Position numbers and translations under genes: made by a program. DNA of 60,418 nt, filler included, from Sluysia triapertura (Eukaryota), in NCBI GenBank assembly GCA_046118255.1. It is 5 parts of 5 records of this genome, joined end to end, with 100 filler letters (N's around TTAATTAATTAA, not from the genome) between each part and the next. Parts side by side here need not be neighbours in the genome. Positions count along the whole stretch, not along the records: positions 38,295 to 49,470 come from JBJNIA010187811.1; positions 49,571 to 60,418 come from JBJNIA010192705.1; 3 more parts are not named here. One strand, written 5' to 3'. The notes below the pieces were generated by a model that saw only the letters and a list, made by a program, of their open reading frames with translations, made no database searches and was not told the DNA's origin. This document shows positions 12,921 through 60,418 of this stretch, in pieces; position 1 is the stretch's first letter; each line of letters starts with the position of its first letter.

Positions 12921-13020
12921 NNNNNNNNNNNNNNNNNNNNNNNNNNNNNNNNNNNNNNNNNNNNTTAATTAATTAANNNNNNNNNNNNNNNNNNNNNNNN
13001 NNNNNNNNNNNNNNNNNNNN
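12921..13020. other. Artificial contig linker (N run with TTAATTAATTAA)
   Basis: 100-bp spacer carrying stop codons in all six frames. Confidence 0.98.
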
Positions 13021-24288: not shown

Positions 24289-24327
<39 letters not shown>

Positions 24328-25584: not shown

Positions 25585-25684
25585 NNNNNNNNNNNNNNNN
25601 NNNNNNNNNNNNNNNNNNNNNNNNNNNNTTAATTAATTAANNNNNNNNNNNNNNNNNNNNNNNNNNNNNNNNNNNNNNNNNNNN
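25585..25684. other. Artificial contig linker
   Basis: N run with TTAATTAATTAA. Confidence 0.98.
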
Positions 25685-27339: not shown

Positions 27340-27742
27340 CTTTTTCTGATTGTATCAGCCAATATATAACTAATTTCTCGAAAGTCATTTAAGCTTCTAA
27401 ATACATTATAAATAGGATTATTACGCAATAACCTTTTTAATTGTTGAAATTCGTCCATAATCTTCACGACATCCTGAGCATACAATTTAAATTTGGATTA
27501 GAAATCTCTGTTGGATTTATTTGTTCAATTGACATTGCCTTTCCAAAATAAGTTATGTTATTCAGGTAATTATTATTTATGAAAACATTAGCAAGTACCA
27601 AGTATCCGTGCATCAATATAGAAGAATATATATGATTAAGGCCACAAAATATTTGATATACAAAATAGCTAATTTGATCATACGAACATTCTTCTTTTGA
27701 TGATATTATACGATGTAATTCTGTTTTTACAAAGCTAAACAT
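27340..27742 (-). pseudogene. Intronless degenerate MAP kinase fragment (subdomains V-VII)
   Basis: FVKTELHRIISS...QISYFVYQIFCGLNHIYSSILMHGYLVLANVFIN..ITYFGKA matches MAPK METDLHxII..HIxYFLYQILRGLKYIHSAxVLHRDLKPxNxxIN..ICDFGLA. HRD and DFG are destroyed. Confidence 0.8.
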
Positions 27743-27744
27743 TA

Positions 27745-27950
27745 AAATGTAAAGAATTAAAATTGAATTTTGTTAATATTTCCTTATTTTTGCTAAAGAA
27801 TTAGAACTGTTGTTTTTATAATATTTAATTTATTTAATTTATGAGAAACAGAAAAATACACTTCTTTATTAAAAGGTGTGTAGTTTTTTTATGGGTTTTT
27901 ATTAAGTTGGGGCGCCAAAAATAAATATGTTGAAATGGGGTTGCAGCTTT
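27745..27950 (-). mobile_element. hAT-like MITE fragment, copy 2, abutting the 5' end of the MAPK fragment
   Basis: Reverse complement matches 25320-25560. Confidence 0.7.
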
Positions 27951-31474: not shown

Positions 31475-31989
31475 AATGACTTACACAAGTGGCTGTTTAA
31501 TCACTATCGTGGCAAAATAAAATACATCAACTACCGCAACAGTTAGAAAATACGGGCTTAATTCCGTTAACGGAAAATCATGTGATTTATCTCAAGTACG
31601 GTATTTTAGTTTTTATTCTGATTTTGCTTTAGTTGATTTTTATTCTTATATAAAGTTATTTAAAGTTATGACTTCAATATGTTCGGGACTGTTTCAATAT
31701 TTAACGTTTAACAAGCCAATATCATTTAAATGTTTTGCGTATGATTTGAATAAACGCATTTTATGTTATATTTACTAAATTTTTAATAAATTTAATTTAA
31801 ATTAAAAAATTTATAAAGGAGAATTTTACAGATCCAATGTAGCAATTAATATTAATGGTTTTTATTTCAATAATTCTTATATAAATAAAACTATAGAAAT
31901 GTATTTAAAATTCATAAAACCAAATAAATACTATTCAAATAATTTAACACGAAATCTACATCCATTTCGAAACTTTAATCCACCGACAA

Positions 31990-32457
31990 AATTCGACAAC
32001 GGTCACAGCGGTCAGACCGAAACAACTGGCGGCGGTGTTCTTCTCTATGGGTAGCACCTCTTCAAATCGTCAAAAAGAAAGATGTGTAACTATAGAATGC
32101 TGAACAAAGTCATAGTGCCAGACACATATCCTGTGTCACTCATAACAGATATTCTACACAGATTTTCTGGTTGTAAAATTTTCTCTTCAATAGAGCTCGC
32201 AAATGCATACCACTAAATTCCAGTACATACTGAAGATAGCCGTTACCACTCCTTTCGGTTCGTTCGAATTTACAATGATGTCTTTCGGTCTAAGAAATGC
32301 ATCACAAACCTTCCAGCAACACACGAACGAATTTCTTCAAGGTTTAACTTTCGCCACAGCTTATATCGATGGCATGATAATTGCTTACAGAGATTTTAAA
32401 CAACATCAAACATATCTGGAACAAGTATTCCAAAGACTATCCGATAATAACAATTAG
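31990..32457 (+). mobile_element. Ty3/gypsy reverse transcriptase remnant (frameshifted)
   Basis: CNYRMLNKVIVPDTYPV..FSGCKIFSSIELANAYH and TTPFGSFEFTMMSFGLRNASQTFQ..AYIDG (YxDD decayed). Confidence 0.92.
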
Positions 32458-32629
32458 GCAGCACTAGACTACGAACAATTTCATATCACCCACAATCCAA
32501 ATGTATGAGAGAGAGATTCCGAAGAAACATTACCAAGTTTTACATCGGTATTTTTTCTAAACAAGCTACATTAAACGTAAGTGCGTTAACAAGAAACTTA
32601 TAAAATATATAAACCTTTTTGTGATTGTA

Positions 32630-33679: not shown

Positions 33680-34360
33680 AATTATTTATGTCTTCTTGGG
33701 TCATATGGTCCCGTCGGGAAGCAGCAAGATTGACATTGAGAATATTCACCCCATTGACAGAAAAGATTTGCATACGAGAATAACTTGCTAAAATAGAAAA
33801 AAAGGTTCTTTATTCGCTCATAATGTTCACTGGGATTTGCTTGATGAACGACAAAATTTTTAAATTCATTGGCTCTGTGACAATAGGACATCTTCTAGCA
33901 TATTTAGCACATTCACCGGTTTGTGTCGTTTCATATGGACAGATAGCGATCTTATAATTCTTGAAGCCATTACCATAAATTGATGGATTTGTATATAAAA
34001 GTTTGTTATTATTATCAAAAGGCTTTAAGTGGCTAAACTTTGATTCCGTAGTGATAATGATCTCTATGTTATAATAATTGAATCAATGTCTATTAATCTA
34101 AGGGCATTGTAAATATTCTTGTTAGTCTAATATAGACTTCATTAATTTCATTATTACAAAGGTTAATAAGATTCAATAATAACATGCATATTTCATAAGA
34201 CATATCGGAGTTGTTAGATATACATACTGAATGATTATTTTTTCATTTAAAATACTTAAATACATTGCATGTGTCTTTGATTAGACTGTCTTTTATTTGA
34301 CTATCATTGCGTTGATTTAAGGTTGTTAATATAATTACATTTCGATAAAATTATTAGATC
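33680..34360 (-). pseudogene. Degenerate unknown ORF plus frameshifted CCCH finger
   Basis: KNYKIAICPYETTQTGECAKYARRC[1-nt loss]YCHRANEF at 33956-33865. Confidence 0.65.
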
Positions 34361-34812
34361 AAGATTATTTATTAGTAAATTTATATTTATTTTATTAGGA
34401 GATATTATTAAGGCTTTATTGCAGTAAAAAATTTGTATTTCATTTTTACGTTATTTAAGAGAATTAATCTAAAATCTATTAAATTAAATAAAAACACGTA
34501 TAACAATCTAATTTTTTTCATATTAATAAAACTAAAATTATTAATGTTTATTAATTTTCGAATATGTTTTCTTCTCGACCATAATCCAACAACTAAATGA
34601 AAAGATATAATTAAATTATCATCATCATAATTATATCTATTATTTACTTTAATTTCATCAGGTATAGATTCATGCATTTGTATTTTTGTGAAATTGTTGG
34701 CTCGTACTTTGAAATCTTTTACGGATGAATACTGTATTGGAGCAGAAATGTCTATAGATCCCAATAGGCCTTTCATTCTGTCAAGATGCATGCCGGTAAC
34801 TGTTGAGTTAAT

Positions 34813-35007
34813 TTATAGCTCTTCAAGCTCGCTGAGTGAGTGAAAGTACTTACATTTCGTACCATATCTCATGCATTTTCCGTTCTGCATTGTCATAAAC
34901 AGACATAGAGCTGTTTTGTAGTGTTTATTAAAATTTGTTGAACTATAAATCTTTATACGTATGGGTTTGTTGTCCACACGCGATGACTTAAAATCACTAT
35001 ACTTCAC
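34813..35007 (-). pseudogene. CCCH zinc finger (Tis11-like lead-in) directly downstream of the helicase remnant
   Basis: HYKTALCLFMTMQNGKCMRYGTKCKYFHSLSEL. Confidence 0.8.
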
Positions 35008-35084
35008 GTTATCTTATGAATCTTTGATCATGAAGCGTTGAAATTATTGTTAATGATTAGTGAACAAATATTTTGCATAGTAAG

Positions 35085-36180
35085 TCACAATTTCTTTACC
35101 ATCTCAACAAAAGACTTTTCGATTTCAGGAAATATGAAAGTAGTAGCATAATCTGTTTTAACAGTTCGTACAGTTCGACTATTTCTGTAAGGATAAGCAA
35201 CAACATTTTCTGGAACATTGAGATTGAAAACTATAACAATGTCTTCGAAATCTAATACTGTACTGACAAACGGATGAGCAAACATATCACATGCATTACA
35301 TGATTTGGAAAGATTCACGTTTTGTTTCTTGCGAAACATTCGTGGCTTCGAGCATACTGAAAAAATGTCTTTAATATTCATTTTATTTATAATGGATTCA
35401 TAATACCACGTAATAGGATAAACTTTAACAAAGACTAAAACTTTAGATAGGTATGATTTATTATTATAGTGCGTTAATGTTTCACATATTAATCCAACAT
35501 CATTAATCATAGCCCAAATACATTGTTTCAACTGTGTTGGAAAATTACTTTCTAATGTGGCATCAACAAATTGTAGATCATGTAACAAAGATCAGTACTT
35601 CTATTCAACTTCATCATAACATGTCACGGAATAAATTTCTGTTTGTCTAAAAATCTTTATATTATTCTTCTTATCTTTCTTGCTTGATTTTGGTGATATA
35701 ATTCGTAAAACTTTATCAATTTCTTGACCTAATTGATAACTCATCATTATATCTTCCTCGTAAATTGCCAAATGTTGAATAGAATAAAAAATTTCTTTAA
35801 TTTGGCTAGTGTAATGAAGCATCATTAAATTCGACCAGGAGTCAACATCAGGAATACTACGTTCAGTTAATTGATCATTCATATCTCTAGTTAAGCCCAT
35901 TATTTTCAGATTTAATCCTTCACTCATCTTCATTAGTTCACCATACTCTTGTATTACTAATTTTTATAAACATTAATGGTCGATCGATATCTAAACATTG
36001 TTGAATAACTGGAATACAGTAAGAACCAGTTTTTACAATGCCGGTTCCAGATAAACCAGTAACATTTTTATGTTTCAGTAATAATGGTATAGCATGTTGT
36101 TCAATTTGAGACAACTTTAACCATTTTAATTTAGAAATATTGTCTAAAATCTCTGATATTTTAGTTGTGGCTGTTATCAT
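35085..36180 (-). pseudogene. Intronless, disrupted DEAD-box helicase, most similar to DDX56/Dbp9
   Basis: Q motif/motif I (WLKLSQIEQHAIPLLL..GTGIVKTGSYCIPVIQ), decayed DEAD (LAIYEEDIM), motif III (YSVT), and motifs V-VI (LDFEDIVIVFNLNVP..AYPYRNSRTVR..TFIFP), split across three ORFs. Confidence 0.85.
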
Positions 36181-36269
36181 TGTTTAACCAAATAATATTA
36201 TTAAAGTGTTGTTTTTCGTATCCTAGAGGCGCATACAAATACATAAAAATATAAAAGGACCATTTTACA

Positions 36270-38194: not shown

Positions 38195-38294
38195 NNNNNN
38201 NNNNNNNNNNNNNNNNNNNNNNNNNNNNNNNNNNNNNNTTAATTAATTAANNNNNNNNNNNNNNNNNNNNNNNNNNNNNNNNNNNNNNNNNNNN
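38195..38294. other. Artificial contig linker
   Basis: N run with TTAATTAATTAA. Confidence 0.98.
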
Positions 38295-42396: not shown

Positions 42397-43030
42397 TTAT
42401 ATTTTTAGTTTATCGGATAAAAACGTCTCTAACCGTGATAAACGTGCAGAGAATAAATTGAATCCGTATGATATGAGAAAAATACTTATTAGTAAATTAA
42501 AACTAAGACTTGCGATACTAAACAAAAGAGAGTTTACTTGAAAGAATGGCAAAAATTTGTAATCATAAATTGAAACGTTATTCATTTTCGATAGCATATA
42601 TAATGAAATAAATAATAATAAAACGACATAATTAAGTACTATTAAATATTTATATTTATATCGTTCGTACTGTTGATAAAAGGAGTGTAAAAGTACGAAA
42701 CTATAATTAAAAAATACGAAACTAACAGTTAAATCAAAGTTATCATCTGCTACACATCTCCCATTTGTCGGTAATACTACAAAATTGACCAGGATTATAA
42801 ATTTGAGAGCCAATTCTAAGTCATTGACATTGTATTTAGATGTAATTTCATTGTAAAAATTATTAACGATACGTGAAGTAAAACGTAAAATTGATAATGA
42901 GTAAATTAGTAGGTAGTTCATAAGATAAATGAGTCGAGTGACTATTGATGAAATACAATTATTACCACCGTACTTACAACAAATGCTTGAGGTGGCATTA
43001 GCACATCAACAAATTACTGACATCCAATAT
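42397..43030 (-). pseudogene. Degenerate multi-pass membrane protein fragment, possibly GPCR-derived
   Basis: 174-aa hydrophobic ORF. LAILD upstream and NYLLIYSLSILRF are weakly TM2- and TM3-like. Confidence 0.35.
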
Positions 43031-43377
43031 AGCAAGCCATTATTATAATTTTTACTTTCCAAAAAAATCAATAACAAAAATCTTAAATTAATTATTATTA
43101 ATTTATTTCTTAATATATTATTATATTTATATTTTAATATTATTAATTTATATATTAATATTTTATATTTTCAGGAATGCTTGCTGTTTCAAAACTTTCA
43201 ATAGATTTTTGCAAGTATTTATCATATAACTGATTCTTTTGCAGCTCATAATTCAATTTGACAATAACTCGTATGTTATTAATTTTTTCATATATATCTA
43301 ATAAAGCATCTTTTGATGTTTTTACTGAATCCAAATTAATAATCTTATTTTCGGACTGAAATGGCAGGTTTTAAATT

Positions 43378-43698
43378 TCACTTGATCTTTTGACGAATAC
43401 AAAGAATTTGGAAAATGTTATTAATATCAGCGGAATTAAAAGTAATTTCTTTCAGCATACCTTCCATTTGAATTACTTTGTTAAAAGCAACAATAACTTT
43501 TGATTTCTCAATAGATTTCTGTTTGCCAAACAAATCGTAAATAAACAAACTTTGAAAGGAATTAAAAAATTCATTAAGGTAATTTAATATATTTTGCAAA
43601 TTATCAACTTGTTGTGTTAAACTGAATCGAATTAAAAAAATTTGCTTTACTAATGTATGTATCTGGCATTTTAAATACTTGATCTGAAATTCTGACAT
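43378..43698 (-). pseudogene. Unidentified intronless ORF fragment
   Basis: 106-aa ATG-initiated ORF inside the B-A cargo train. No motif recognised. Confidence 0.3.
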
Positions 43699-43801
43699 AA
43701 TACTATTAAAATAAACTTTAATTAGCGATTTTTGGTAATAGATAATACTTTTTAATCACATTTCATTCCATAAATAAATTTAATTGTTATGGTTACTCTT
43801 T

Positions 43802-44270
43802 TTACATAAGCATAACACTGAGTAATTCCTTCCAGCTATTTCTCTTACAAATAGTTTTAGCCCTAAAGGGAAGTATAACCAATATCATTCGATCGATAGC
43901 TACTGAAACTAATAACCATACACTGATATAAGCTAAAGTGTAAAGTAATATCGATACAAAGACAAAAATGAATTTAAGTCGAATTTTTGTCCCAGTATAC
44001 AATGTAGCCATATCATAAACTTGAGTACAAACACTGATAATTAAATAAAATATATCGACAAATGCAAGTACTATTAAATAAAATGTGGTACTTGGGTTAT
44101 TGAGACCTGGTGAAACAAGAACTGCTATAATGAGACAATTTCCCAAAATACCGAATATGACAATCGTTAACCAAATTAATGTACATGAATAATGAATGAA
44201 ATAAAATTCTTTTGAAAATAAAATCGAGCTGTTGGATAATGATGACGACGGTTTCTTGTTATGAGTTGGT
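43802..44270 (-). pseudogene. Truncated intronless class A (peptide-receptor-like) GPCR, TM1-TM3/ICL2
   Basis: FGILGNCLIIAVL (TM1 GN), STTFYLIVLAFVD (TM2 LAxxD), ISVWLLVSVAIDRMILVILPFRAKTIC (TM3 DR, ICL2 P). Terminates before TM4. Confidence 0.85.
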
Positions 44271-44289
44271 GTACAAATGAATGAAACTA

Positions 44290-44682
44290 TCGAAAACGAT
44301 ATTTGTGGTTTTGTTGACGGTATTTCATAGCATAATAATGAATCTTGCGAAATTTCTGATGATGTCGGAAGAAGAACAAAAGAATAAGAAGAAAGGTTGA
44401 AAGTAAAGATAAAAGAAATAATAATGATAACAATAATGTATTAATTATATATTTTAAAATAATGGTGTTGATGATGTTGTGGTGCAATTATAAAGTTATT
44501 GTATGATAATCACATTATATAACAATAATGATAATAATTATTATATATTTTAATACGATTGGATTTGTAATAATACTAGCTATAGTTCATGATAATTATG
44601 TAGAGTAGTTTGATTAATGTTCCGTATATATGAGATATTTTTATGTGGTGAAACATTGATATTTTGATATGATTTCCCTACG
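44290..44682 (-). repeat. Repeat family B
   Basis: Reverse complement begins (c)GTAGGGAAATC and aligns with 45513-45900. Confidence 0.8.
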
Positions 44683-45346
44683 GTATTTATGTTAGTGTGA
44701 CAGATAATAAATATTATTCAACAAGAAATATTTTCAATATTCTTTATGTAATAATTAATTGATGTTATTCCACCATTTAAAATGTAAACTTCAAAATATG
44801 CAACATTTAAGATAATACCCTAAAATTTAATTCACTTAAAATATGAATTGCAAAGTTGCGCTGATTTTTAGGAAAGTGATATAAATCAAAACGTAAACAA
44901 CAATGTTTTTATCAAAAAATCATAAAATATAAAATACACTCAAAGTAATATAAAAGTTATTAGAAAAGAAGAAATCGAATGATAGTTTAATTGTTTTCTT
45001 TAGGGTTGCAAATATATTTAATATGACTTTTCGTTTATTTTAAGTCAGTTTTTAAAATGCGACAAACCATACAGAAATATAACTAATGTTGATTTTTATT
45101 AAATATTCCGCTGAGGTAATTTGTTTTAGAATGACCATTTTTTTCAAAATGATTCAAATCAATTTATAGAAGGTTGATGATTGGAACTTAAACTAACAAA
45201 TTCTGAAAAATGGTTTCAGTAAGAATCTTTTGTGACATAAGGTTTAATTTAAAATACTCGAATTCAACAAATCGTAGTTTATTTCTGTCTTTTGTGTGAA
45301 ACGAGTTGTCGTATTTTGTACCAAATAATCAATTTATTAAATTATT

Positions 45347-45501
45347 TGTTGGGATACCGGCCTAAAGTGCCATTTAGAATAATGGAATATTCTAATCTAA
45401 AATTGTTAGACGGGGCTGATAGCTCACTGGTAGAGCATCGAACTGCGCAGCGAGAGATCCCTGGTTCGATCCTCGGTCAGTCCATTTTATGAAGTCTAAC
45501 A
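45347..45501 (+). mobile_element. tRNA-containing LTR-like repeat, copy 1
   Basis: TGTTGGG...GTCTAACA termini. Internal tRNA-like cassette at ~45413-45484 with A box, B box GGTTCGATCC and a TTTT terminator. Confidence 0.85.
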
Positions 45502-45512
45502 TGTAACACCTT

Positions 45513-45941
45513 TGTAGGGAATTCATCACATAAAAACACTTCACATATACACAGACAATTAAACAAACTACTAAACTCATTTAAAAACAAACACGACCAT
45601 CACATCTAATTATCATGAACTATCGCTATTATTATTACAATTCAGATCGTATTAAAATATATATAATAATTATAGTCATTATTGTCATATAATATGATCA
45701 TATAGTAATAACTTTTATAATAACTTTTATAATAATTTTCATGATAAAATTTCATAATAAATTTCAACAATTATGTATTAATAAACCTAATAACTACAGA
45801 ATTGTTATCATTATTATTATTTCCTATTCCTACTATTTTTTTGTTCATTTTTATTATCAATCTTTCTTTCCCTTTTTATATTATGCAATATATCTGACTG
45901 TGATACCGGAAAATTTGTACTTTTCTATTTTATTTCCTACA
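45513..45941 (+). repeat. Repeat family B (TGTAGGGAA...TTCCTACA)
   Basis: Homologous to 11151/12241 and 44682(-). This copy has inverted TG..CA termini. Confidence 0.8.
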
Positions 45942-46487
45942 AACATTGTTCCACCAATCAAGTATGAAGATTTAAAACCAATTGGTGAATTTATTGCCTT
46001 AAATCCCAATTCACATGAAGAAATGTTAGATGGTAATCAAACTCAAACTATTCAAAATGCAGTGTCCATGACAGCTCCTCACACGATACTTCATACACAC
46101 ACCGGAACCTCATATTATACTGACCCTTCTCAATTGACGCCTGGACCGCCGCTTTATATTCTCAATCCAACAGTTAATTCTCAGCCTGCACATCAATTTT
46201 TGCATCATTCTACTGCATATTCTGCTGTAACTGCACCACCGCCATATACACTTCCTGGAACATCTCAAGCACCAACTGGCACTCATACATATTACACCAC
46301 ATCACCACATCCAACACAGATACATCAAACAAACTATAACACTCTTTCACAACACACACCATATCATTCTCATCATCCAGCAGTATTTTCTACTCTCACA
46401 TTAGGTCTACCACCAGCTCCAGTTGCATCTACTTCTACTACATTATTGGACCCAACACTATCCACAAACCCAATCCAATTTCAATAA
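45942..46487 (+). other. Open Pro/Thr/His/Ser-rich low-complexity reading frame (exon-derived fragment)
   Basis: About 180 stop-free codons, raised GC, PPPY motif. The 5' end is fused to repeat B. Confidence 0.5.
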
Positions 46488-46489
46488 TC

Positions 46490-46978
46490 TGAGATAAATA
46501 TTTAGCTGATCGTAAAATAGCTTTGGAATATTACAAAAAGACGAGTAATGGGTCTGATAAATCATCTTGATAAAAGAAAAAATGGTAGGTTTTATTATGT
46601 TGATTTCTTGAAAAATTTCGAAACTATTTCAAATAGTAAACCTAGTCCAACAAAACATGATCCAGAAAGTAACGTATTTATTGATAAAAAAATGGATCTA
46701 CCTACACGTTTTCGACAATTCGAAATAAGCTAAGAGAAAAAATAATTTCCAAATTTAATAGCACTCTTCAGTCATTTCAAATGTTGGATAAAAATAAAAC
46801 TGGATTTATTACAATAGATTCTATAGATAAACTATTAAAAGAAATAGACATTAAATTAAATGAAACGGACCTTTAACATAAATTAACTAATTTTTATTAC
46901 AATTTGGATGGAAAAATTGATTATATGGAATTTATTCGTACTTTATTTAATCTGCAAGCAAGTCAATGTATCATTTAA
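46490..46978 (+). pseudogene. Degenerate intronless multi-EF-hand protein fragment
   Basis: LDKRKNGRFYYVDFL, LDKNKTGFITIDS and LDGKIDYMEFIR in shifting frames with stops. Confidence 0.75.
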
Positions 46979-47040
46979 TAAAATAATAATTAATAAAAAA
47001 ATAATCAATTAAGTTTATTGAGTTAAAATTTGTTATGGTA

Positions 47041-47628
47041 AATTTTGGTATAACTAGTCAAACAACTCCAAGACTTCTACCAAGTGGTACTGCAGTTAGT
47101 ACAGCTGGTTTATTTGTTTTGTTGACCTTTTTCTACAGCAGACTAAAAGGTGTGAGAAGAAAGGTTATTATGTATTAAAAAACATTTACATTATTTTTAA
47201 TTCATTTATCTCACGCGTTCTATGGTGCCCATTTTATTTATCAAATACTTGCAAGTATTGTAGTTGGAATATCAGTCAAACTCCATTTTTGTAAGATGAC
47301 TCTTTACGGTTCATCATCAGTTGTTTACCTAAGAACAACTTCAATTATATTAGGTATAAGAATTTTTAATTCTATCACCGCAAGTTTTCTACGAATTACT
47401 CAATACTGTGTATATGATGGAGTTAAAATGAAAGGTAGATGCCTCGATCAATTACAGCGTAATGATGTATATTATATGGAGCCTTATGTTCGTCAAGCTT
47501 CAATATTACGTGGTAATCATTATTTAAGTATCTTTTTGAAAGAAAATATTTTAAAGGACGTGATAATCGGAGTTACAGTTATGCATTTGTTATATTGTTG
47601 TTTTATTTTTATTTTTTTTACACAGTAA
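47041..47628 (+). pseudogene. Degenerate intronless glucose-6-phosphatase (G6PC, PAP2 family) fragment
   Basis: One frame with one stop: FGITSQTTPRLLPSGTAVSTAG (cf. [21 protein letters not shown]) and LSHAFYGAHFIYQILASIVVGISV (cf. [24 protein letters not shown]). The PSGH His and the SR Arg are lost. Confidence 0.75.
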
Positions 47629-47682
47629 CGAATTTTGCCGGTTCATTAAATTTCTTAATTTTGTTGTTTTTAATTGTTACAA

Positions 47683-47837
47683 GCCTTAAGCCTATTTTGT
47701 TAAATATAAAAATAAGACTTTTAAAACGTTGTAATTTAATTGTAAGTTATTTAGTAAAAATAATGCTTGATAAAAATACAAAAATGAATAAAAATAACAT
47801 TATTTCAAATAAAATAAAATACTTTTTGCCCTCCACA
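47683..47837 (+). repeat. Repeat family A
   Basis: gccttaagccta...gccctccaca. Confidence 0.7.
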
Positions 47838-48309
47838 CAAGAACAAAATAGGAAAAACGTATCCAATACAAACGAAAAGTTGCTTCTTCATCAAGTTTTT
47901 AGTTTCTGTAGGATAGGTACTATTTCTGGAATTAATTTCAACTCTTTTAATGTTAAACTTTCTTTTTTTAAGATTGTTGGTAGCCAGAAGATGGGAGGAA
48001 GAGTGAGAGAGAGTGTTACAAAAAGTGAAGTTAGAAAGGTAAATAGATCGAAGTTAAGAAAAATTTGGAGTGAACAAAAGAGTTGTGGTAGGAAGAGTTG
48101 ACTTGTTTTATAGAAATTTCTTAAAGTAAAATTTTGAATTTATGTTAGTGTGCCATTGAGGATTTAAATTTTTGAGTAATATGTTTGGCTACCACAAGCT
48201 GAAATTAAAGTTTAAAATTATTTCCTTTAGTAGTTTAAAGATGATTGCAAACTATCATTAAAGGATTTACATAATTAAAAGGCCATTTAAGAGCGTGTAC
48301 CTTTAATAC

Positions 48310-48481
48310 CGTCGGGCTCACCAATTGTTAGACTTCGTAAAATGGACTGACCGGGGATCGAACCCAGGACCATCGCTGCGCAGTTCGATTGCTCTACCAT
48401 TGAGCTATCAGCCCCGTCTAGAAATTTTATATTTCTATAGTCCATTATACTATATGGCACTTTAGGCCTTTTACCCCAACA
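48310..48481 (-). mobile_element. tRNA-containing LTR copy 2 (48481-48326) with adjacent tRNA-Trp-like primer-binding site
   Basis: TGTTGGGG...GTCTAACA, then AT, then TGGTGAGCCCGACG (13/14 match to the Trp PBS TGGTGACCCCGACG). Confidence 0.85.
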
Positions 48482-49470
48482 CTATAATTAAATTTATTAT
48501 ATACTAAAATAATATAAAAGGACAGACTTTTCGCAAGGTTAATATAGAAATAGTTATTCAAGGAGATTTTAGAGAATAATTAAAGAAGATTTTTACAAGA
48601 AGACGATAGAAATTTTATAAAGAAGACTGTAGATGATTATTTTTTCAAACCTAATTGTTAGTTTTAATACGTTTAAGAAAAGTTTAATTGAAATAATAAA
48701 ATTTACTAAATTTTTGATTTAAGCACTCAGTAACATTTAATTACCATATAAAAGCATTTTAAAAAACACTTCAAGTATTTAAATATTAATTGCTAAAATT
48801 AATATTATCCTGAAATACTATAAAAAAATCTGATATAAATTTATAGAGCTAAAATTGAAAAGTTGCTTTGATAAATTAATAGATTGTTTTTTGATTAAAA
48901 TATTATTGTATATTCATAATTCCATTTGATTTTAAACCTCTAATTCTCTTATTACAAATTGACATGCTTCTGTACATTTATAATTTTATTTTTATTAATA
49001 CATAATTTCAAAAAATTGTATTCTTTTGGTATTAAATAAAATAAGAATTAAGCTTGAATTAATATTTTATAAAGTTATATTACGATTATTACTTAAAATA
49101 TAACAAATTTCTTATTACGAAAGTTTCATAATAACTAAATTTATCGAAAGGAGAATCAAAAATAACTATCTAAAACTAAGAAAAAGTAGCATCAAAATTA
49201 AATATTAAAGCCTCCAAATTCTTGTCTTTGTCTCTTAAAAACTGCGAATCTATGTGCTAGTCCTTCATTGAGTAAGTCCAGTATCATACAGAACTTACGT
49301 TATTATTTAATCTTAATCTCATTGCAAATAACTATAAAAATTTTAACATCAAATTTCAACAAATTTACAAATAAATAGCAAAATCGTTTTCTATTAGCTC
49401 CAAAATAAATGTAATTACATAAATTTACTTCAAACTTTCTTTTAAAAATATCAAATACATGATTATCTTT

Positions 49471-49570
49471 NNNNNNNNNNNNNNNNNNNNNNNNNNNNNN
49501 NNNNNNNNNNNNNNTTAATTAATTAANNNNNNNNNNNNNNNNNNNNNNNNNNNNNNNNNNNNNNNNNNNN
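49471..49570. other. Artificial contig linker
   Basis: N run with TTAATTAATTAA. Confidence 0.98.
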
Positions 49571-49622
<52 letters not shown>

Positions 49623-49720
49623 GAAAAATAAATTTTAATTAAAACATTTGAAATTAAATTTACTTATAAATAGATTTTTCAAATAATGCTATAAATAAAT
49701 TTCAAAAAGTAAATACTTAC

Positions 49721-52700
49721 TTACTCAACATGAATAAAGGATTGATTTCACCTATGCTGCGACCTGATAAATTAATAACTACATTAACGTCTTTTGGAAT
49801 ACCTTCATTTTCAATATGTTTCTGACACAATATAAATTTATTAAATTTCTTAGACTGATAAGTATCTCATTTTTATCTCAATAATAATAATAATGATAAT
49901 AATAATATAATAATAATAATGATAATGATAATAATAATATAATAATAATAATGATAATGATAATAATAATAGTCTATAAATTGTACTTATAAAGGATTAA
50001 GGATTGGTCATTAAAAGAGAAAAAATTATAGAGAAAAATTGAATCATTGGCCATAAAATTTTATTAGAGAAAATGAATCTTTGTTCTTTGTTTTCACTTA
50101 TTATTCCTTTTGATACTTGTATGTAATTTTCCACACGTATGCAAACATTTTCTTTTATGTATATATTCAAATAGGTATTTTATTTTTGGCAACAGTATAA
50201 TTTGCTAAAGAAATACGAATGTTATGAATTTTGTCTAAATAATCCTGCGACGCAATTCCAATTTGTATAAACGCATTGGTGCCTTAGGTGATGATCAGGC
50301 TCTTGATGTACCACGTAGATGTCAATTTAAATATGAACATAAAAGTGAAAGCTCAAAACATTGTAATGTTCTCATTTTTTTAAATTAATTTGTTTTTGTG
50401 CATGTTTTATGTGACTATAATTCTCGTAGAATTATAAACAGTTGAAATGCAGATGAAATACACAACAAAACGATAATATGTACTAATATATAAAGAAATA
50501 TACGATAGAATGAAATCAAAATCATATAAATTATTACAAAACTGAATGTTTTCTGATGGAAATTGAACAATATTGGGATTAAATTTAAACAAATGGAAAT
50601 CATTATTATTGTCTTTAAAACGTCAACAATGTTTATAACGAGAAATAAGTCACCTAAATAATCTACAACTCTTACAATAACTTGCAGATAATACACAACG
50701 CGTATTTTTTAATAAATAATCACTAAAGATCTTTTATTTCTAAAGTAATGTCATATTAAATGTTTAATGTATGCATTTTGGCTGACAAAATGGGGCTAAA
50801 AGTTTTTTTCTATTTCACATAAGTATAGATACTTTATAAATATTTTAATTCAAATGCAGGTAATACAATTAAGATAGATCTATTAATAGTTAATACTATT
50901 AAGATGTGTACTGTACAGCGTTTATTATTTGTATAAATAAACTTTAATGAACGGCAGTTCAACTATATTTTAGAAATATAAAATATCTATATATTTAATA
51001 TCCATCAAAACTAGTAAACTATAATCTATAATAGTTAGAATACATTGAAAGAATCAAAAAAAGATTTTTAAAAAATTAATAATAATATATTAGGTTACAA
51101 AAAGTGGATAATTTGAAATTTGAAAACTGGGAGATTATTTTTAAAGAAAATTTACGTTTAATGAAAGAAGACTCGACAAAACATTCTTCAAGAGACCAAA
51201 TCCTTACGATTGTTTACAAAACAATGATTACTTGATATCGTATTGAACAAAACAAAAAATTGTATATTTACTGTTTAAAATAAGATTGTTAATTACGAAA
51301 GAAGTGCACATCACCAGTGATTCATCAAGCGTTCGTGTTCATGATAATCCTAATGATCTAATCCGTTCATTAAGACTAGCTGAAAACGCGATCTGAGAAA
51401 GTCTCTACCTGATAAGACATATTTCTACTAACCTTTTATTGATGGAACGAAAGAAATTATTGTCAAGATTGAAGATGCAGAATTGTATGGCAGTGACACG
51501 AATTTTGGAACTAATGGCACACGAATTTATTTATGAATTTTTAAATGTAACTTCTACATTAGTTTTATTGAACAAGTTTTTGAATTCGTTGTTTTATAAT
51601 CGATTTTTGTTTTGTCATTATTCTGATTTACTTAAAATAACCTTAGAATTAAATTAAATGTCAAATTTTCCGCCTGGTCTTAAGCCGGCTTTGAATATAA
51701 ATCGCATTCATAATTTAATAATAAGAAAAATGTTTAAAGTGTTTACAATGTTTAAGCAAAAATTCAGGAGACTTAGGCACTAATAAGCCAATAATAAAAA
51801 ATTTCGATCATAGAATAACAATTAAAATAAAGTCACGTTATTCTTGTAAGTCCTCTATATTCTCCATACAATGTTTTCTTTGTAATTTTTCATCTTTAAT
51901 TACCAAGTAACGCACGTCACCAAATAGCATCACTATTTAAATAATTTATTAAGTTTTGGTAATACTATTAAAATAATTTCACTAATCAATTAGTATCACT
52001 ATTCCAATTAAAAAGTATATCATATACCCAACCAGATTCTATTTATAAAAAATCGGTAGCTTATCTTATTTTGTGAAATTAATCAAGTATTTAAAATTTT
52101 ATTTAACAAAATTATATACGAGAATAATACAGTCGCATCAATTCTTATGCTTGGTCCACAAAAAGCAAAAAGTGCGATTAAATGATTTTATTTTTGATGA
52201 AAATGTCAAATATCTGGAAAATTAATAAATTTTTAATTTTTTTATTTGTAAAACTGAAAAAACAAAATAGCATAACTATTTTCGGTAATACAATTCAAGT
52301 AGTATCACTAATACTATTACTAGCAATATCCGTTATGCTAACAATTAATTAAAATAAGTTCATAATTCAGTCAACTATAAATTAATATAAAGAGCTATCG
52401 ATAATAAGTAAACTGTTTTAATAAATGACAACTAAAACTTATTTGCTTATTATTTTATTTGATATTATTGCTTATTTTATCAATTAGATGTTGCGAGTGT
52501 ATTGTCAAATTTTATTTACTTTAATATCATCGACACTTGTGAGTTAAGGTTTATTTAACATTGTATATTTCTTTTGGTTGTCTAATAAAAGTATATTTAA
52601 AAAATAATTTGTTTTCTAACCCTGGTGGCAAATCACAAAATTTACAAAACCGAAAAAAAAGTTTCATTATAAATTATCTCAAGTGACAATACCAAAGAAT

Positions 52701-53146
52701 TAAGCAAAAAATAAAAACAGTGCAAATCGATGTACTCTTACTTCCATCGTAGCTATCACTTCAAAATTTGGTTTGACACTTTTATTAGTTTAGATTAAAA
52801 TCTAACTTAATATTCCAAAGTAGAACATAAATAACTTTATCCGAAATACTGACACAAATTTGAATTATGATGTATCAGATGACAACTTCAATATAAAGTA
52901 TAAAATTAAATGCACACCAATCGAAAAATAATATACGTTTCAAAATTCTCATCGTAAAATATTTATAATACAAATTAAATATACCCAAGAGATCATATTT
53001 TCATATTTTGGATATCTAGAAATCGCAATAACATCATGTCCTTTCCTTTTCAAATAATCGATTAAATGTCTTCCTACAAAACCGGTACCACCACCTTTTT
53101 AAGGAAAATAAAAATGTAATAATATTTCACCTATTAAAAACTTCAT
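49721..53146 (-). CDS. SDR39U1: Epimerase family protein SDR39U1, first three exons
   Basis: Exons 53146-53131, 53094-52985 and 49821-49721 splice to MKFLIGGGTGFVGRHLIDYLKRKGHDVIAISRYP..ISW-KHIENEGIPKDVNVVINLSGRSI (Rossmann GGTGFxG, H.V...SR, W, VVNLxG). Confidence 0.88.
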
Positions 53147-53436
53147 TACAGTATAATTTCTAATAAAAATTTAATTATAATATAAATATTAAATAAAAAA
53201 ATAAATACACAAGTGTTACTCATATATATAATTAATAACTTATTACTATAAATTATAATTATTATAAATTATAAATTATAAAAATTATATAAAATTACTA
53301 TATAAATAGAAAAATTAATATAAATACTCTCAATAATTAATATTTTAATGCGAAATATTAAAACAAATAATACAATTATAATAATATAATTATAATAATT
53401 ACTTTTATATAAAAAAGTAATAAAAAAAATAATAAT

Positions 53437-54302
53437 TCACAATATCCTTAATATTTATCATGAATTTTGAATATTTCAGTTTTGTGTTGTTTAATGATAT
53501 TAAAAACATAATGCAAAATAATTATATATTTGTTCAAATCAATGTGTTGGATTAGCTCACTGTGGAATAGAAATGAGTAAAGAAGATGCGCAATTGAAAG
53601 ATGCCAGAAAACGTGATACAAGATGATAGGCAAATCATTGTGATTGATGAAGATGAAGTTACTTAAAATCATTTTGTGTATAGAAAAATACCTTGGAATT
53701 ACAAATGCATTAAGATCCTTCAGGAAGCTTGGGATTGGTTCGGAAAACATTTTGAAGCGTTAACGTATCTTTGAACTTGTGAACCCTGAAACCATTTGAA
53801 ACTTCATAAACTTTTAAAGATCTTTAAAACCTTAAAGTAATCTTGTAAAGTGTTTGAAATATTTGAGAAGTAAAATTACTGATACTAATATTAGAAATAA
53901 ATTTGATTCCTTAATAATTAACATAAAGATTCGTGAAGGTGAAAACATTTAGAGCCTCTTGAATGTCATATAAAGTACCAAACAACTTTAAAAGTCTTAA
54001 TAAAACCTTTTAACATAAATAATACTAATAATGCTCAATATCTTTAATATTTATCATGAATTTTTGAACATTTCAGTTTTGTATTGTTTAATGATATTAA
54101 AAACAAAATGCAAAACAACTATATATTTTTTCAAATCAATGTTTTGTGATTACCACACTGTGGAATAAGGAATAAATAAGGAAGATGCGTAATTGAAAGG
54201 TGCAGGAAAACGTGATACAGAGTGATAGGCAAATCATAACCAAATATTGTGAAGTGAGAATGATGAAGACGAAGTTACTTATGATCATTTTGAGTATAGA
54301 AA
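53437..54302 (+). repeat. Direct duplication of ~250 bp (53437-53685 and 54035-54302)
   Basis: Clear colinear similarity with substitutions and one ~15-bp indel. Confidence 0.9.
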
Positions 54303-54857
54303 TGCTGCGGTTTATTCTAAAAACATACCTAACATAAATTTTACTTTAAAGCATAAAGACTTAAGAGACTTCCCTATATAATTTTGATTTCAAGGTCGTT
54401 TGATTAATTTTACAACTACTTAATCTATTTAACAACTACAATTGGTGATTCATTTATTAAATATTTTAAGTCCTTTTTTAAAATAAGTTTATAACAATAC
54501 ATTTTAAACGCTTGTTTAAAAACAAAATCTAGTATTGATTTTAATTAAATTACAGCTATATAATTTGTTGTGCCTTTTGTACTTTTTATTTTACAAATTA
54601 TTAATCAAAACTCAATAATTAAACAAATTCCGAATCTCCATATATTCTTTGAATCATCACAAAATTACACTTAAAAGACAAATTATTTTTTATAACAACG
54701 TTAATACAAAGTACTTTTTACAACAAAATACAAATGATTCTTTATAACAATATTACAAACTACTTTCTACAACAACGCAAATTACTTTAAAAAAATCACT
54801 TAAATCTTAAATCTTAAAAACTTAATTCTTTGCACCTGTATTAATTCAAAATATACT

Positions 54858-55843
54858 TGTGGTGGTCCAGCTCGCACCTACACACCAACCAAATATACAA
54901 GTTTTGTCCATATCATTCACAACATTACATCACTCATCCTTACCAAATTACACATGCCTAATAAAATTTATTTTATTAAACACAACGCTCGTTGTCATCT
55001 CGTTTATCATTATGACGCAACATCCTCTAGCTTGTATTTCATAATTTTTATTTTTTATTCTACAGTTTTATTTTTTCTCTGCAGTTTTATAATTGTATAA
55101 TTCTATAATGTTACATTTTTACAAATTTTATTATTGCATTCCTACTAACGCAGATGTCATAAAACACCCTTTGTAGTCCATGGTTTACGCATTATATTGA
55201 TAGTGTGGCAACGGAATTATATCGAGAAAAAATGTCATCCTCTGTTACATCTTCCGAAAAAGATAATTGTATACGAACTGCAACAAATAATCATTTTCAA
55301 CATAATCAGTACTGTAAAATTCAACCAAGATTACAATTAAAAATGGGCTGTTCATTAGTAGAAACTAAACCAAATGTTATTAGTAACAATAAAATATCAA
55401 TATTAAAGAAATACCAATTACTATTTTAGTATTTCCAAATGGAACCTGATGAATTTATAAGCTTTTTAAACAGGCTTATACATTTGTATTAATTGTGCCT
55501 ACTTTGTTATTTTTAATGGAATAATATTGTTTCTTATATACAATTTATTTGCTTAAATGAATATTCTTATGATTGAATAAAAATAAGCGAAATTAGCTTA
55601 TATTTCAAGAATTACTAAATATTAATTCTTGCAAATACATTCTATCTGATAAAATAATTTTAAAAGATTGTAACTGTTTTTAAATTAGGTAATATTTCAA
55701 CATGCTAACAAAAGTATACTTAACCAATTGTTTAAAAATAGATAATTTTTACTTTAGGTAGTTTAGATTTAATACATTTGTTCAACGACTGTGACCAGCT
55801 TACATTTTGACTGACAAACCGTAAGTCGAATGTTGGTAACAGT
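54858..55843 (+). promoter_or_regulatory. Diverged family D-like module on the plus strand
   Basis: Starts TGTGGTGGTCCAGC. Inverted repeat actgtgaccagc (55788-55799) / gttggtaacagt (55832-55843) lies ~220 bp before the Caprin fragment. No (TAT)n run or CCAAT pair seen. Confidence 0.4.
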
Positions 55844-56064
55844 ATCTTTTTTAATATTATCATAAATTATTTTATATTTTATTTTCCATTTAAAAAGTAT
55901 TAAAATTATATTTCTTTTAAACTTTTAAAATAATTAGAAATATTTTTTCTTGGAAACTACATATTTTTTTGTCCAACATGGCTATAGAATACCATATTTT
56001 TCATTGAATTGTTTGCCTGAATTAATTTAATGCTTAACTTTTTATTATTTTAAATAGCTGCCTT

Positions 56065-56400
56065 ATGACTAATAGATCGGAAATTACCGATGTATCTTTG
56101 GAAAAAATTAAGTATATCTCAATCATGTTTGGGAAGAAAAGAAGAAAAAAAGAAAGACAAAATTATAAGCGTAAGAGTGATATTAACGAAGATCAGCAAG
56201 CTGCAGTGGTGAAATATGCAGAAGCAAACGTCCAATATAAAGATGCAAAAAATCTATAAGAAGATTAAAGAAGCAAGAGAAACTAGAAAATAAGAAGCAA
56301 GAAGTTGATATGATCGAGTGAAATTTCAAATTTTTCAATTTATCGGAAATGGAAAAGAACAGCAAAAATTAAAAACAGAAAAATTAACAATAACGTAGCC
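56065..56400 (+). pseudogene. Degenerate intronless Caprin-like (HR1) fragment
   Basis: INEDQQAAVVKYAEANVQYKDAKNL matches Caprin-1 LNQDQLDAVSKYQEVTNNLEFAKEL and is preceded by a basic KK-rich helix. Frameshift and stops follow. Confidence 0.65.
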
Positions 56401-57329
56401 GAACTACTTCATTCTTTATTAGAGGTGGAAATAATGTAAATAACAATTGACAGTACATACAAACATAATTATTATCATTGATGTTATTATTATTGATTTG
56501 TGTTGTGTATATCGATTTTTATTATTTGAATTATTATTAATTTTGGAATTATTACAATTATTATTATTGATTATTATTCAATTCTGGAAATAATACAAAT
56601 CTTAAATATAGGTAATATATAATTTAATATCAGTTTTTGTAAATATTATATTTAAATTTGATTTAATATTTGTTTGAATTTAATATTTAAATTTAAAAAA
56701 GCCAAGGTCGATCTGAAACAAATATAAATAGTCAATCATTTTCACATTTGTACAGATCTTAATACAGATCGACTCTAACCGATCTTCATATTCAAATAAT
56801 TTAATTTATTCTGTAACGTTAGTTTATTTTAAGGATCGATACTAACACAGTATCTATGTAAAATCCACTAAAAATCATTTGTGTAAATTATTTCTAAAAA
56901 GATCTTATAATAGATCTTACGTAAAATCATTAATCAAATTTCATTAGTTTAGGAATTAAAACTAATTCCTTGCAATGTATTTATTTTTTCTTTTTATATA
57001 ACAGTGTATAAACTAGTAATTGTATAATTAAATCTTCAAGAATTAATTCCTTTATTATTGAATAGTTTCAACTATAACATCTTTAGCAGAGTAACGATTT
57101 CAACGATTAGAATTTAAATCTAATCACGTAAAATCATTTTTATAAATTTTTTTCATAGGATCTTCGTAAAATACTCTGTAAATTTTTCAGTTAACATATT
57201 TATAAATTTAATATCGTTAATAGGTTTTACATTAATTTTTATTAAAATACCTCCAGATCTAGATTACATTGTTCTTAATTTGAAAGACTAACTAGAAATA
57301 CACAGACTTTGACTTTATAGCGTTCGCAG

Positions 57330-57451
57330 AAAATTAAGATATTTTCTTAGTGAAGATCCTTTCCATTATAGAAAAAACCCAACGGCCAGCACTAACTGGT
57401 AAGCCTAGGACTCACGTTAAATCCTACTTTATTCTACTTTATATATCTCAC
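57330..57451 (-). repeat. Family C terminal segment
   Basis: Reverse complement tgtgaga..cgtgagt..cttaccag..gccgttgg matches 11201-11320. Confidence 0.75.
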
Positions 57452-59849
57452 ACTACCGTTAAAATCGGTTTCTATTTTATTTTGATTTTGGAGATTTTAA
57501 GTCATTAGGCTACAACCGAATATAAAATCGGCACCTTACAATTCAATATCAATAAGAAAATAAAATCCTAAAGTTTATTATAAATACGATATAAAATTTT
57601 ATACTGTACAAATAAATAAATAAAAAATTTATCAATTATAATATCATTGTTCTTTGTTAAGGATTTTGTAAGGATTTTGAAAAATATCTTTAAAAATTAA
57701 TTAGGAATATTAAGTGGATTTTATAACTCTCATTAAAACGAAATTGAAACCTATTTAAAATTAACTAACGAATTTTGGAATAATAATATATTGGCATGAA
57801 TGATTTCCAATGTAAATTAAGAACTTTTCGGTAATATTTTTGAATATTCCAAATATCAATAATGTTTTGTTTCCGATAAGCTTCTCTTCAGTGTTTCTTT
57901 GGATAAACAAATGTTTCACAGTTTTATTTTGTGATTGATGTACTATATATACTCTTTCCTGACCTTGACTTTAGCGTAGTTTAACAAAATAATGTAACAA
58001 TTTATTATTTTATTTTAAAATTCATTTTTATTTATTTTATTCTTTTAAATTTTGTGTTATTAATAATAACAAATAATAATAATGATAATAACAATACACA
58101 AAATCATGCCTTGTTTCTAAATATTGATTTTTTCTAATTATAATCTAATTATAATTCTTAATATTGAAATTACAGGTAACTAAATTATTTTTTTTATATT
58201 TAGTAATTACTCATTTTAATATTTTAGTTTAGCTTTGTTGTAAAGATTTGCAAAGTTCAAATAATTATAATTTATTTTTATTGGTCATTATAACTTCATA
58301 TAAATATTACAAAAATATCTTCATTGTTTAGATAAACTCATTAATTTTAATTATATCATTGTTTTGTTTGTTTAAAATATTCTAATGGACTTCCTCTCAG
58401 TAATTAAAAATTAAGAACTTTTAATTATATTTGAAAAAGGAATAATATAAAACTTTATGGAAAAATTTGGGAAGTGAAACAAAATATGAAATATCAAAAA
58501 TATTTAAATATATTTATTAATTTAATATTAATAAGTTTTAATATTAAAACGTCAATACGGTAATTTAATGTTATTTATTTAGTAATTCTGAAATTGAGAC
58601 AAATTCATATTAAGGCAAGCAAAAGCGTTTCAGAAATTGTGGAGTATTTCAATTTTTCTGTAAATAAAAGTAAGAGTAAATCTAGTTACGTCGAAAACAG
58701 GAAGAAATGCCGCTACCAAAGTTTCTATTGCAAGATTAAGAATGTAAAGTGTGTACTAAAATGAGGAAAGAATTAAAACTTATTTAAGAAAAGATTTTGA
58801 AACAATCTAAAATTTGGATGTGTGTTAGTGTCTTATTTGATCACTGAAGCAAAATGAATCAATCAATAGTTTTGGCAACTAACCACGAATTAAAACGTTT
58901 AGAAGGCAGTAATAATTTATCAATTTGAACAAAACTATTTATATAAGGGTTATTTGATCCTTTATAATCGAAACTTAGTGTGACTTAACCCATGTAGTAC
59001 AAATAAATTTAAATAAAAATTACAACATAATTCTTATTATTCCTTGCATTGGAATCTTACAAAATATACACAAAAATTAAAAAATAGGTTATTAATGGGT
59101 TGATAGATTTAAGTACTTTTGTACTTTTTATTGCAAAATTTGAAAAACAATTTGAAAATAATAATCAAACAAAACAACACAAATAATTTACATAAGGTAA
59201 TGTTTTTATCGTAAAATACAATGATTAAATATTACAGTAACAAGAAAAATAATTGATTTCAATCTAAGTAATAATAAAAGGATATTTATAAAAATTAAAA
59301 TCTTAGGATTTTAATTTATATCAAGTTACTTTTTATTTACAAAAGTTAGCCCTCATTTACCGATATTTTAAATACTGATTTTATAGTTCATATTATGAAG
59401 GCTTAAACCTAATTAAATAAACGTACTAATTAATAATTAGAATACAATAAATTTTAAATCTCAATCTCAGAATAAAATAATTTAAAATTACACTTTTGTA
59501 TTTAATGAATACCTCTGTCTTATTTTGATTTGGCTTTTCATTTCATTTTTTAATTATTATTATCACTATTATTATGGTTATTGGTATTTTTCTTTTTAAT
59601 TATTACTATTATCATAAATGATTATTATTTTGTCAAAAATTATAAAAATTTTAATTTTTTGCAAATGGTTGTAATTTTTGTCGACGAACGGAATCAAAAT
59701 TGAGAATCTTATGCATATAAATGACAGTTGCATATTCAAAGATTTACGGACCTTATTTTTCAGCAAAATGCTTGTAAAATGTCGATGGAAATTCGTAAAT
59801 ATTTGAATGTAAATCTACCACATTCACTAAATCACAGTTCTTTTATTAA

Positions 59850-60000
59850 TGTTGGGGTAAAAGCTTAAAGTGTCATGTATAAATATTGACTATAAAATAA
59901 AATTGTTAGACGGGGCTGATACTAAGTGGTAAAGCATCGAACGACGCAGCGAGTGGTCCCGGGTTCGATCCCTTGTCAGTCCATTTTATGAAGTCTAACA
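59850..60000 (+). mobile_element. tRNA-containing solo LTR (copy 3) with 4-bp TTAA target-site duplication
   Basis: ttaa|TGTTGGGG...tRNA-like cassette...GTCTAACA|ttaa. Confidence 0.88.
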
Positions 60001-60418
60001 TTAATATTTAAAAACTTCTGATTTTAGATGTAATATATTTCAGGTGTTCTAGAACAAAGAAAGGATGTAATTAAAGATTTATAATGCATATGTGGATCGA
60101 TTAATATATGTGCTTAAAGTAAATGGCAATAATGATTAATGATATTTGGTTTTCATAATTTTAGATTAATTTATATTTGAGAAAATATGTATTCATGTTT
60201 TAGTAGACATTATTTAAAATATTATTTTATTATGGCTGATTTTATGATGCTATAGCCGCCAATGTTTGTTTTTTATGAATGATGGGGAAAAGTGTGCGTC
60301 GAAGCATTAAAAAGTAACGAATATTGGATACAAATTGGATATAAATTTCACTAAAACATAATTTCTAAAGCAATCACACTTCATACTATCGAACTACACC
60401 AACTCAATCATCATAAAC

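Follow-up and report, generated by a model that had tools for sequence, protein, structure and literature searches.

The 60,418-nucleotide stretch of assembled DNA analysed here, referred to as the window, carries three copies of a short unit that resembles the long terminal repeat (LTR) of a retrotransposon and encloses a tRNA-like cassette. Copy 1 (155 bp, 45347-45501, + strand) and copy 2 (156 bp, 48326-48481, - strand) share one contig piece; copy 3 (151 bp, 59850-60000, + strand) stands on a separate contig. An earlier reading of the sequence (the original prediction) had placed all three at exactly these coordinates and strands. The copies are 81-86% identical to one another over their full length (E <= 1e-37; 86% for copies 1 and 2), and searching the window with a profile of the three reveals no further copy. 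Each unit starts with TGTTGGG and ends with GTCTAACA, and the predicted TGT...ACA (TGTT/AACA) termini are thus present in every copy. The layout is constant. A 5' part of 63-67 bp precedes a cassette of 71-72 nt, which is followed by 17 bp that begin with a run of four T residues (T4) and end with GTCTAACA, leaving only 13 bp between T4 and the end of the unit. The outer inverted repeat amounts to 4-6 bp only, TGTT(G/A)G. Just before the cassette lies an inner TGTTAGAC, which repeats the unit's final 8 bases in reverse complement. It is exact in copy 1 (45404-45411, +) and copy 3 (59904-59911, +) and carries two substitutions in copy 2, so that the inner inverted repeat once claimed for each copy holds in full for two of them. 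A link between this repeat and the way the cassette was acquired, hinted at in the original prediction, is speculative. Variable columns among the three copies number 21 of 67 (31%) in the 5' part, 15 of 73 (21%) in the cassette and 1 of 17 (6%) in the 3' part, a pattern that fits a free U3 (unique 3') region and a constrained R-U5 (repeat and unique 5') region.

The unit is a discrete, abundant repeat, because in the DNA sequencing run X1, which contains 49% of the sampled words of 43000-50000 and is the one run listed for this region, with no RNA run beside it, 303 contigs (83 + 220) leave its 3' end into unrelated flanks. Agreement among these flanks is 0.45 and 0.43, and they are therefore unrelated AT-rich sequences without a common tail. 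A further 84 contigs show a 5' end of the copy 1 type followed by diverse AT-rich flank (both results from 6 of 236 rows of loose contig ends), and 253 contigs exit copy 1 at 45501. The A/T tail that the original prediction had named as evidence for a short interspersed nuclear element (SINE) is seen neither in the copies nor in the X1 contigs. When X1 contigs were aligned to copy 2 at 80% likeness, 8669 fitted a 360-bp stretch. Their summed depth reaches 2.6 million at the 3' end, 0.76-0.95 million on the 5' two thirds of the cassette, 50-94 thousand on the 5' part and 0-52 beyond the primer-binding site described below; it is not a copy number, since overlapping contigs were summed. Three copies in 60 kb make it likely that the genome holds thousands of copies or more. 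At the two positions where copy 2 departs from the inner TGTTAGAC, 97% and 96% of X1 depth carries the intact letters, which are therefore the majority state. Depth falls here from 759k to 162k to 57k, a drop confounded by the two private changes of copy 2 and by the variable 5' part; judged from 6 of the 236 loose-end rows, a 98-bp short form may start at this point. Tail-to-tail joints of the unit occur in X1 contigs. A pattern for the 3' end has no match in viral contigs.

The cassettes lie at 45413-45484 (+) in copy 1, 48343-48414 (-) in copy 2 and 59913-59983 (+) in copy 3. Copies 1 and 2 exceed the Rfam tRNA threshold of 29 bits, with 32.1 and 49 bits, respectively; copy 3 has no Rfam match at E <= 0.1, and ARAGORN calls no tRNA gene in the window. 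The promoter-like elements are largely as first described: an A box (TAGC + TGG) is found in copies 1 and 2, the A box and D arm of copy 3 are damaged, and a B box (GGTTC) is present in all three. All seven acceptor pairs form in every copy, again as claimed, and T4 follows directly after base 73 (45485-45488, +; 48339-48342, -; 59984-59987, +) as a predicted terminator for RNA polymerase III (Pol III). The anticodon stem was reported as non-pairing, which is correct in the canonical register; 3-4 pairs are nevertheless possible around a 10-nt loop. A mismatch interrupts the T stem of copies 1 and 3; in copy 2, pairing is possible in the acceptor, D and T stems alike. By folding energy, the cassettes do no better than shuffled sequences (z -0.3 to -1.8).

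The ancestry of the cassette is mixed in appearance. A 25-nt cassette pattern retrieves 12 metagenome loci, all of them ordinary tRNA genes (11 Lys, 1 Cys) and none accompanied by the LTR of this unit. Over five of these 12 loci, with the 25 fetch bases excluded, copies 1 and 2 are 69-71% identical to the natural tRNA-Cys of locus L009 and 54-67% identical to four tRNA-Lys genes. The L009 contig, a short metagenome sequence, holds two different tRNA-Cys(GCA) genes, at 329-401 and 554-625 (-), 150 bp apart and each followed by a T run. Published sources, here and below, are cited for the parts of them that were covered. Compared by eye over the first 30 of 93 places, the cassette closely resembles planarian tRNA-Cys in its D and anticodon arms and its variable loop. 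These two likenesses support descent of the cassette body from tRNA-Cys. The acceptor differs: relative to the planarian Cys rows, pairs 4-69, 5-68 and 6-67 have changed on both sides and still pair, 3-70 is now G-U, and base 73 is A and not U. G3-U70 is the eukaryotic alanine determinant, and U73 together with the GCA anticodon determines cysteine (PMC9976931, Table 1). Both Cys determinants, U73 and GCA at 34-36, are absent from the cassette. The tRNA-Cys-like character originally proposed therefore applies to the body (D, anticodon and variable arms) and not to the acceptor, which has the identity elements of tRNA-Ala. A pure tRNA-Ala origin, suggested by G3-U70, was dropped after the comparisons with tRNA-Cys. 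The natural tRNA-Cys of L009 has the same 5' acceptor strand, so the acceptor changes may have arisen outside the element. None of the 15 acceptor positions varies among the three copies, compared with 15 variable positions out of 58 in the arms (Fisher p = 0.03, for regions picked post hoc), and no acceptor variant at >=10% is listed in X1. None of four cassette motifs occurs in the part of the Schmidtea tRNA table covered (PMC7962491).

Copy 2 is followed by a 14-nt primer-binding site (48310-48323, -) that is complementary to the 3' end of tRNA-Trp plus CCA. It begins 2 nt from the LTR end, a spacing typical of LTR elements; the order 3' of the copy is AT and then TGGTGAGCCCGACG. The site had been predicted as tRNA-Trp-like, and it agrees fully with the TRP-CCA_tRNA_1 of Schmidtea mediterranea (PMC7962491, Table S1): 14 of 14 positions are complementary with CCA included, and 16 of 18 over the full site, by eye and with this reference planarian standing in for the host's own tRNA. 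In that table the exact matching end is found in four rows (TRP-CCA_tRNA_1 and three Trp-like rows that are otherwise labelled), and the honeybee-type end in none of the rows covered. Honeybee tRNA-Trp matches at 13 of 14 positions; it and Helenus-2_SyJa are each one base off (PMC10886601, supplement). The same tRNA-Trp primer is used by two wasp Helenus families and by Gypsy-32_NVi (PMC10886601). A 13-letter pattern of the site with one wildcard matches the window once, after copy 2. In X1, depth in the primer-site bin is 6.8-11.6% of that at the LTR end. Chance extension, simulated with calibration on the 5' flank (0.307, against 0.305 observed), predicts about 2.6%, and five settings span 0.7-6.9%. 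The excess suggests that a few percent of copies carry the tRNA-Trp primer site.

Copy 3 is bounded by TTAA on its left (59846-59849, +) and right (60001-60004, +), the exact 4-bp target-site duplication (TSD) that had been claimed for it. Randomly paired window flanks match over four bases at 0.98%, so one copy in three has a 4-bp TSD at a chance of about 1% per copy. Copy 1 has neither a TSD nor a primer-binding site, and its 3' side abuts an AT-rich, high-copy repeat that may have removed its TSD. This repeat belongs to a second family of about 300 bp, whose members at 12238-12541 (+), 44379-44601 (-) and approximately 45508-45840 (+) are 77-86% alike; beside copy 1 its summed X1 depth is 245-310 thousand. 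A role as the internal part of the element is not supported, because the repeat has no primer site and its two other copies stand without an LTR.

The identity of the host bears on the novelty of the unit. The window consists of five contig pieces of 10.8-12.9 kb in descending order of length, with 23-27% GC. They are joined by spacers of 100 bases each (44 N, TTAATTAATTAA, 44 N) at 12921-13020, 25585-25684, 38195-38294 and 49471-49570, which is why copy 3 lies on a contig other than that of copies 1 and 2 and why gene order across the pieces is meaningless. Exons of ARMC4/ODAD2, a ciliary outer dynein arm docking gene, at approximately 19000-25130 (-) were used for placement. The best matches of an exon (the best 120 of 1017) are bilaterian invertebrates at <=79%. 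In a tree of 41 rows chosen from those matches, the window protein groups with Clonorchis (support 100/99, both branches long). The two have 17 rare residues in common, compared with <=5 shared with any of 14 other taxa, long branches included. Identity to the bivalve, Lingula and Lineus proteins is only 70-73%, so the source is not one of those Helenus hosts. Grouping of a host gene with a trematode, together with the planarian-type tRNA-Trp end and the low GC, makes a flatworm (Platyhelminthes) the likely host on sequence grounds, and possibly a triclad.

[quoted passage not shown] Of the features that characterize Helenus, the cassette with A and B boxes, the sharp TG...CA ends and the primer site are all present, and none was contradicted. 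Most likely, copy 3 is a solo LTR, copy 2 a 5' LTR cut off after its primer site, with neither internal part nor 3' LTR, and copy 1 a copy with one altered flank. A cut-off 5' LTR is not expected to show a TSD. Gypsy-type elements exist in the assembly, as indicated by a broken Ty3/Gypsy reverse transcriptase (RT) in several frames at approximately 31950-32460 (+). It scores 33 bits with Pfam RVT_1, and 32194-32454 is closest to the Ty3 RT among solved structures. This is the sole RT in 118 frames scanned; it belongs to a different contig of the window, and nothing links it to this LTR family.

A working model can be proposed for the life cycle of such an element, in which the U3, R and U5 assignments and the Pol III start site follow general knowledge. 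(i) Transcription by Pol III would begin a few bases upstream of the cassette; U3 would then be the first ~60 bp, R the cassette and U5 the final 13-17 bp. (ii) Most transcripts would end at T4. (iii) Transcripts that pass T4 of the 5' LTR would continue through the primer site and a short internal stretch until T4 of the 3' LTR ends them, and the resulting RNA would carry a cassette at each end. (iv) A Ty3/Gypsy element would supply Gag, RT and integrase and package this RNA. (v) tRNA-Trp would prime reverse transcription, with the cassette as the repeat for strand transfer. (vi) The DNA would integrate with a 4-bp duplication, and LTR-LTR recombination would later leave solo LTRs. T runs commonly follow the cassette in the Helenus LTRs compared (PMC10886601), so the need for read-through is not special to this family. 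An unlikely further role would take the cassette beyond a promoter. Its tRNA-Cys body, with an acceptor rebuilt by compensatory changes to the Ala type (G3-U70, A73) and kept intact while the anticodon arm broke, might yield from thousands of solo LTRs an abundant, alanine-chargeable, non-decoding tRNA mimic, whose processing, charging or EF1A binding would be used to finish, protect or package the genomic RNA. On this same unlikely reading, the inner TGTTAGAC in U3 and the terminal GTCTAACA in U5, at opposite ends of the RNA, could pair and join the ends for strand transfer.

Several observations weigh against the assignment to a Helenus-type TRIM in a flatworm. No two-LTR element, internal region or polypurine tract is seen: only 5-8 purines occur in the 15 nt upstream of each copy, no copy is identified as a 3' LTR, and the contig of copy 2 has no second LTR in the same orientation after it. 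Head-to-tail joints are absent from the X1 joints listed (15 of 156 and 15 of 29), in contigs that break at repeats. Past its primer site, copy 2 runs into DNA that X1 does not show as repeated (depth 312, then 0), so it is truncated or atypical there. The excess of primer-site depth depends on a simulated aligner of uncertain scoring, the most permissive setting of which gives 6.9% and overshoots the 5' control. Copies 1 and 2 lack a TSD (their flanks agree over at most 1 base and 0 bases, respectively), and at 24% GC the word TTAA occurs often. Pol III transcription is described as unvalidated for any Helenus (PMC10886601). The 41-row ARMC4 tree contains a single flatworm, both of the branches concerned are long, and rotifers, gastrotrichs, arthropods (wasps) and ctenophores are not among its taxa.

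The same ends, TSD and primer site would suit any Gypsy-type LTR element, and a longer one, either a large retrotransposon derivative (LARD) or an autonomous Gypsy, could also have acquired a tRNA-derived cassette. The internal part has never been seen, so its length is not fixed. We give this version a small chance. Among the open reading frames downstream of copies 1 and 2, none matches gag, pol or integrase, the 155-bp LTR falls inside the 104-193 bp range of molluscan, brachiopod and nemertean Helenus, and element length is argued to be limited by Pol III (PMC10886601). A DNA transposon is improbable by comparison with the evidence from copy 2, since it offers no reason for a 14-of-14 tRNA-Trp primer site 2 nt past the end. 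Such an element might be a 155-bp miniature inverted-repeat transposable element with a captured tRNA gene, mobilized by an integrase-like transposase of the Ginger type; alternatively, copies 1 and 2 might be the inverted ends of a single 3.1-kb element. Ginger elements do have TGTNR ends and 4-bp TSDs, and Ginger2 favours AT-rich targets; their terminal inverted repeats are 40-270 bp long (PMC2836005), in contrast to the TGTT(G/A)G found here. Copies 1 and 2 face each other, and the tail-to-tail joints in X1 contigs would suit inverted ends. The pair was nonetheless rejected as one element: it has no TSD around it and its members are only 86% alike, whereas copy 3 occurs alone with a TSD of its own.

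The high abundance of the unit, its occurrence mainly as single units and its tRNA head with A and B boxes recall a SINE of tRNA origin, or scattered tRNA pseudogenes that have TG/CA ends by chance. This explanation is largely refuted, and we regard it as very improbable. The 63-67 bp shared upstream of the cassette lie outside a Pol III transcript and would not be copied by target-primed insertion of a single unit; the fixed ACA end, with no tail, recurs in all three copies and in 303 contigs; and a primer site is present. It is hardly credible that the cassettes are a working, decoding tRNA gene family. Copy 2 can form acceptor, D and T stems and scores 49 bits with Rfam, yet its anticodon stem fails canonically, ARAGORN calls no tRNA, the Cys-like arms disagree with the Ala-type acceptor, and copies 1 and 3 have decayed.

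The closest counterparts of the unit are the animal Helenus elements (TRIMp3; Kojima 2024, PMC10886601), which include Helenus-2_SyJa and Helenus-2_SyUm, with a tRNA-Trp primer, and short families of bivalves, Lingula and nemerteans. These have LTRs of 100-200 bp with TGT...ACA ends, a tRNA-like sequence that has A and B boxes, a T run, a 4-bp TSD, a tRNA-complementary primer site a few bases past the LTR, and solo LTRs. The order of parts in Data S1 (5' part, tRNA-like sequence, T4-5, short 3' part, ACA, 1-5 nt, TGG) is the same as here, which bears out the comparison with Helenus made at the outset. Whole elements are approximately 0.3-1.3 kb with a short, non-coding internal part, and Table S1 also lists LTR-only families with the internal part given as n.d. 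(PMC10886601). The present unit differs in its Cys-like cassette with an Ala-type acceptor, in having only 13 bp past T4, in the inner 8-bp inverted copy of its right end just before the cassette, and in that no full-length element is seen. Its abundance, judged from summed depth and not from copy counts, may exceed that of the largest Helenus family listed, in zebrafish, with 5575 LTRs (PMC10886601). Animal hosts in Table S1 belong to Ctenophora, Chordata, Mollusca, Brachiopoda, Nemertea and Arthropoda; the likely platyhelminth host lies outside these six phyla.

Related systems share some of these properties. Cassandra and Ajax, the 5S TRIMs, also have a small-RNA-gene Pol III promoter inside the LTR, and Cassandra transcripts read through the LTRs (PMC7215508). 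They differ in their 5S origin and in their hosts, plants and nemerteans, and the TSD of Ajax is 5 bp. The ta-TRIM of taeniid tapeworms (Koziol 2015, PMC4558846) is a flatworm TRIM with mostly 4-bp TSDs, many solo LTRs and a tRNA primer site. Its primer is tRNA-Leu, the parts of the paper covered mention no tRNA-like cassette in the LTR, and its spliced, oligo-dT-recovered transcripts are as expected for RNA polymerase II. Ginger1 and Ginger2 resemble the unit in their TGTNR termini and 4-bp TSD and differ in their long terminal inverted repeats and transposase; a primer site or tRNA cassette does not figure in the account of them covered ('tRNA' occurs 0 times in the main text, PMC2836005).

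The best description of the unit is thus an abundant and new LTR family of the Helenus type, whose host phylum is likely new as well. Five 10-11 nt motifs from the window are absent from the part of Helenus Data S1 covered, in a text search over wrapped lines without alignment; a diverged relative may be present there, since the comparison relied solely on motifs and inspection by eye. The literature searched, with most subscription papers and Repbase outside that scope, contains no report of a Helenus in a flatworm. The suggestion of a new family or host therefore stands as likely for the family and likely for the phylum; novelty is confined to these, because the concept itself has already been published (PMC10886601). 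Helenus-type elements would likely be extended to a seventh animal phylum, with a probable independent cassette origin, from tRNA-Cys. At its abundance in this genome, the repeat can swell tRNA counts made with covariance models (two of three copies pass the Rfam threshold) and can be mistaken for a SINE. The primer site points to tRNA-Trp, which allows a direct search for the partner Gypsy family. The invariant Ala-type acceptor stem offers a concrete test of the question left open by Kojima 2024, of whether the cassettes are promoters only or function as RNAs too (PMC10886601).

The remaining features of the window are unconnected with the LTR family. An Rfam scan of 1-44000 at gathering scores gives no matches. 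Vav-like gene pieces, comprising one CH domain exon and three RhoGEF exons, lie at 1701-10647 (-); a Vav-like exon used as a query for relatives has no matches. Fragments of a protein kinase (27467-27772, -) and an EF-hand protein (46688-46873, +) are also present. A rhodopsin-family G protein-coupled receptor frame at 43802-44440 (-) has merely three relatives, at 45-62% identity. Self-comparison lists other dispersed or local repeats at 25317-25551/27747-27949, 25908-26108/30368-30560/37101-37281, 40464-40543/60339-60418 and 53420-53686/54015-54302, as well as 59276-59333; one of the listed repeats is an imperfect palindrome. The interrupted frames at 33813-36183 (-) include a DEAD-box helicase-like part (weak with Pfam DEAD, eIF4A-like by its features) and two UNK-like CCCH zinc fingers. 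They make up a helicase-zinc finger gene that has diverged or decayed and that a mobile element may carry.

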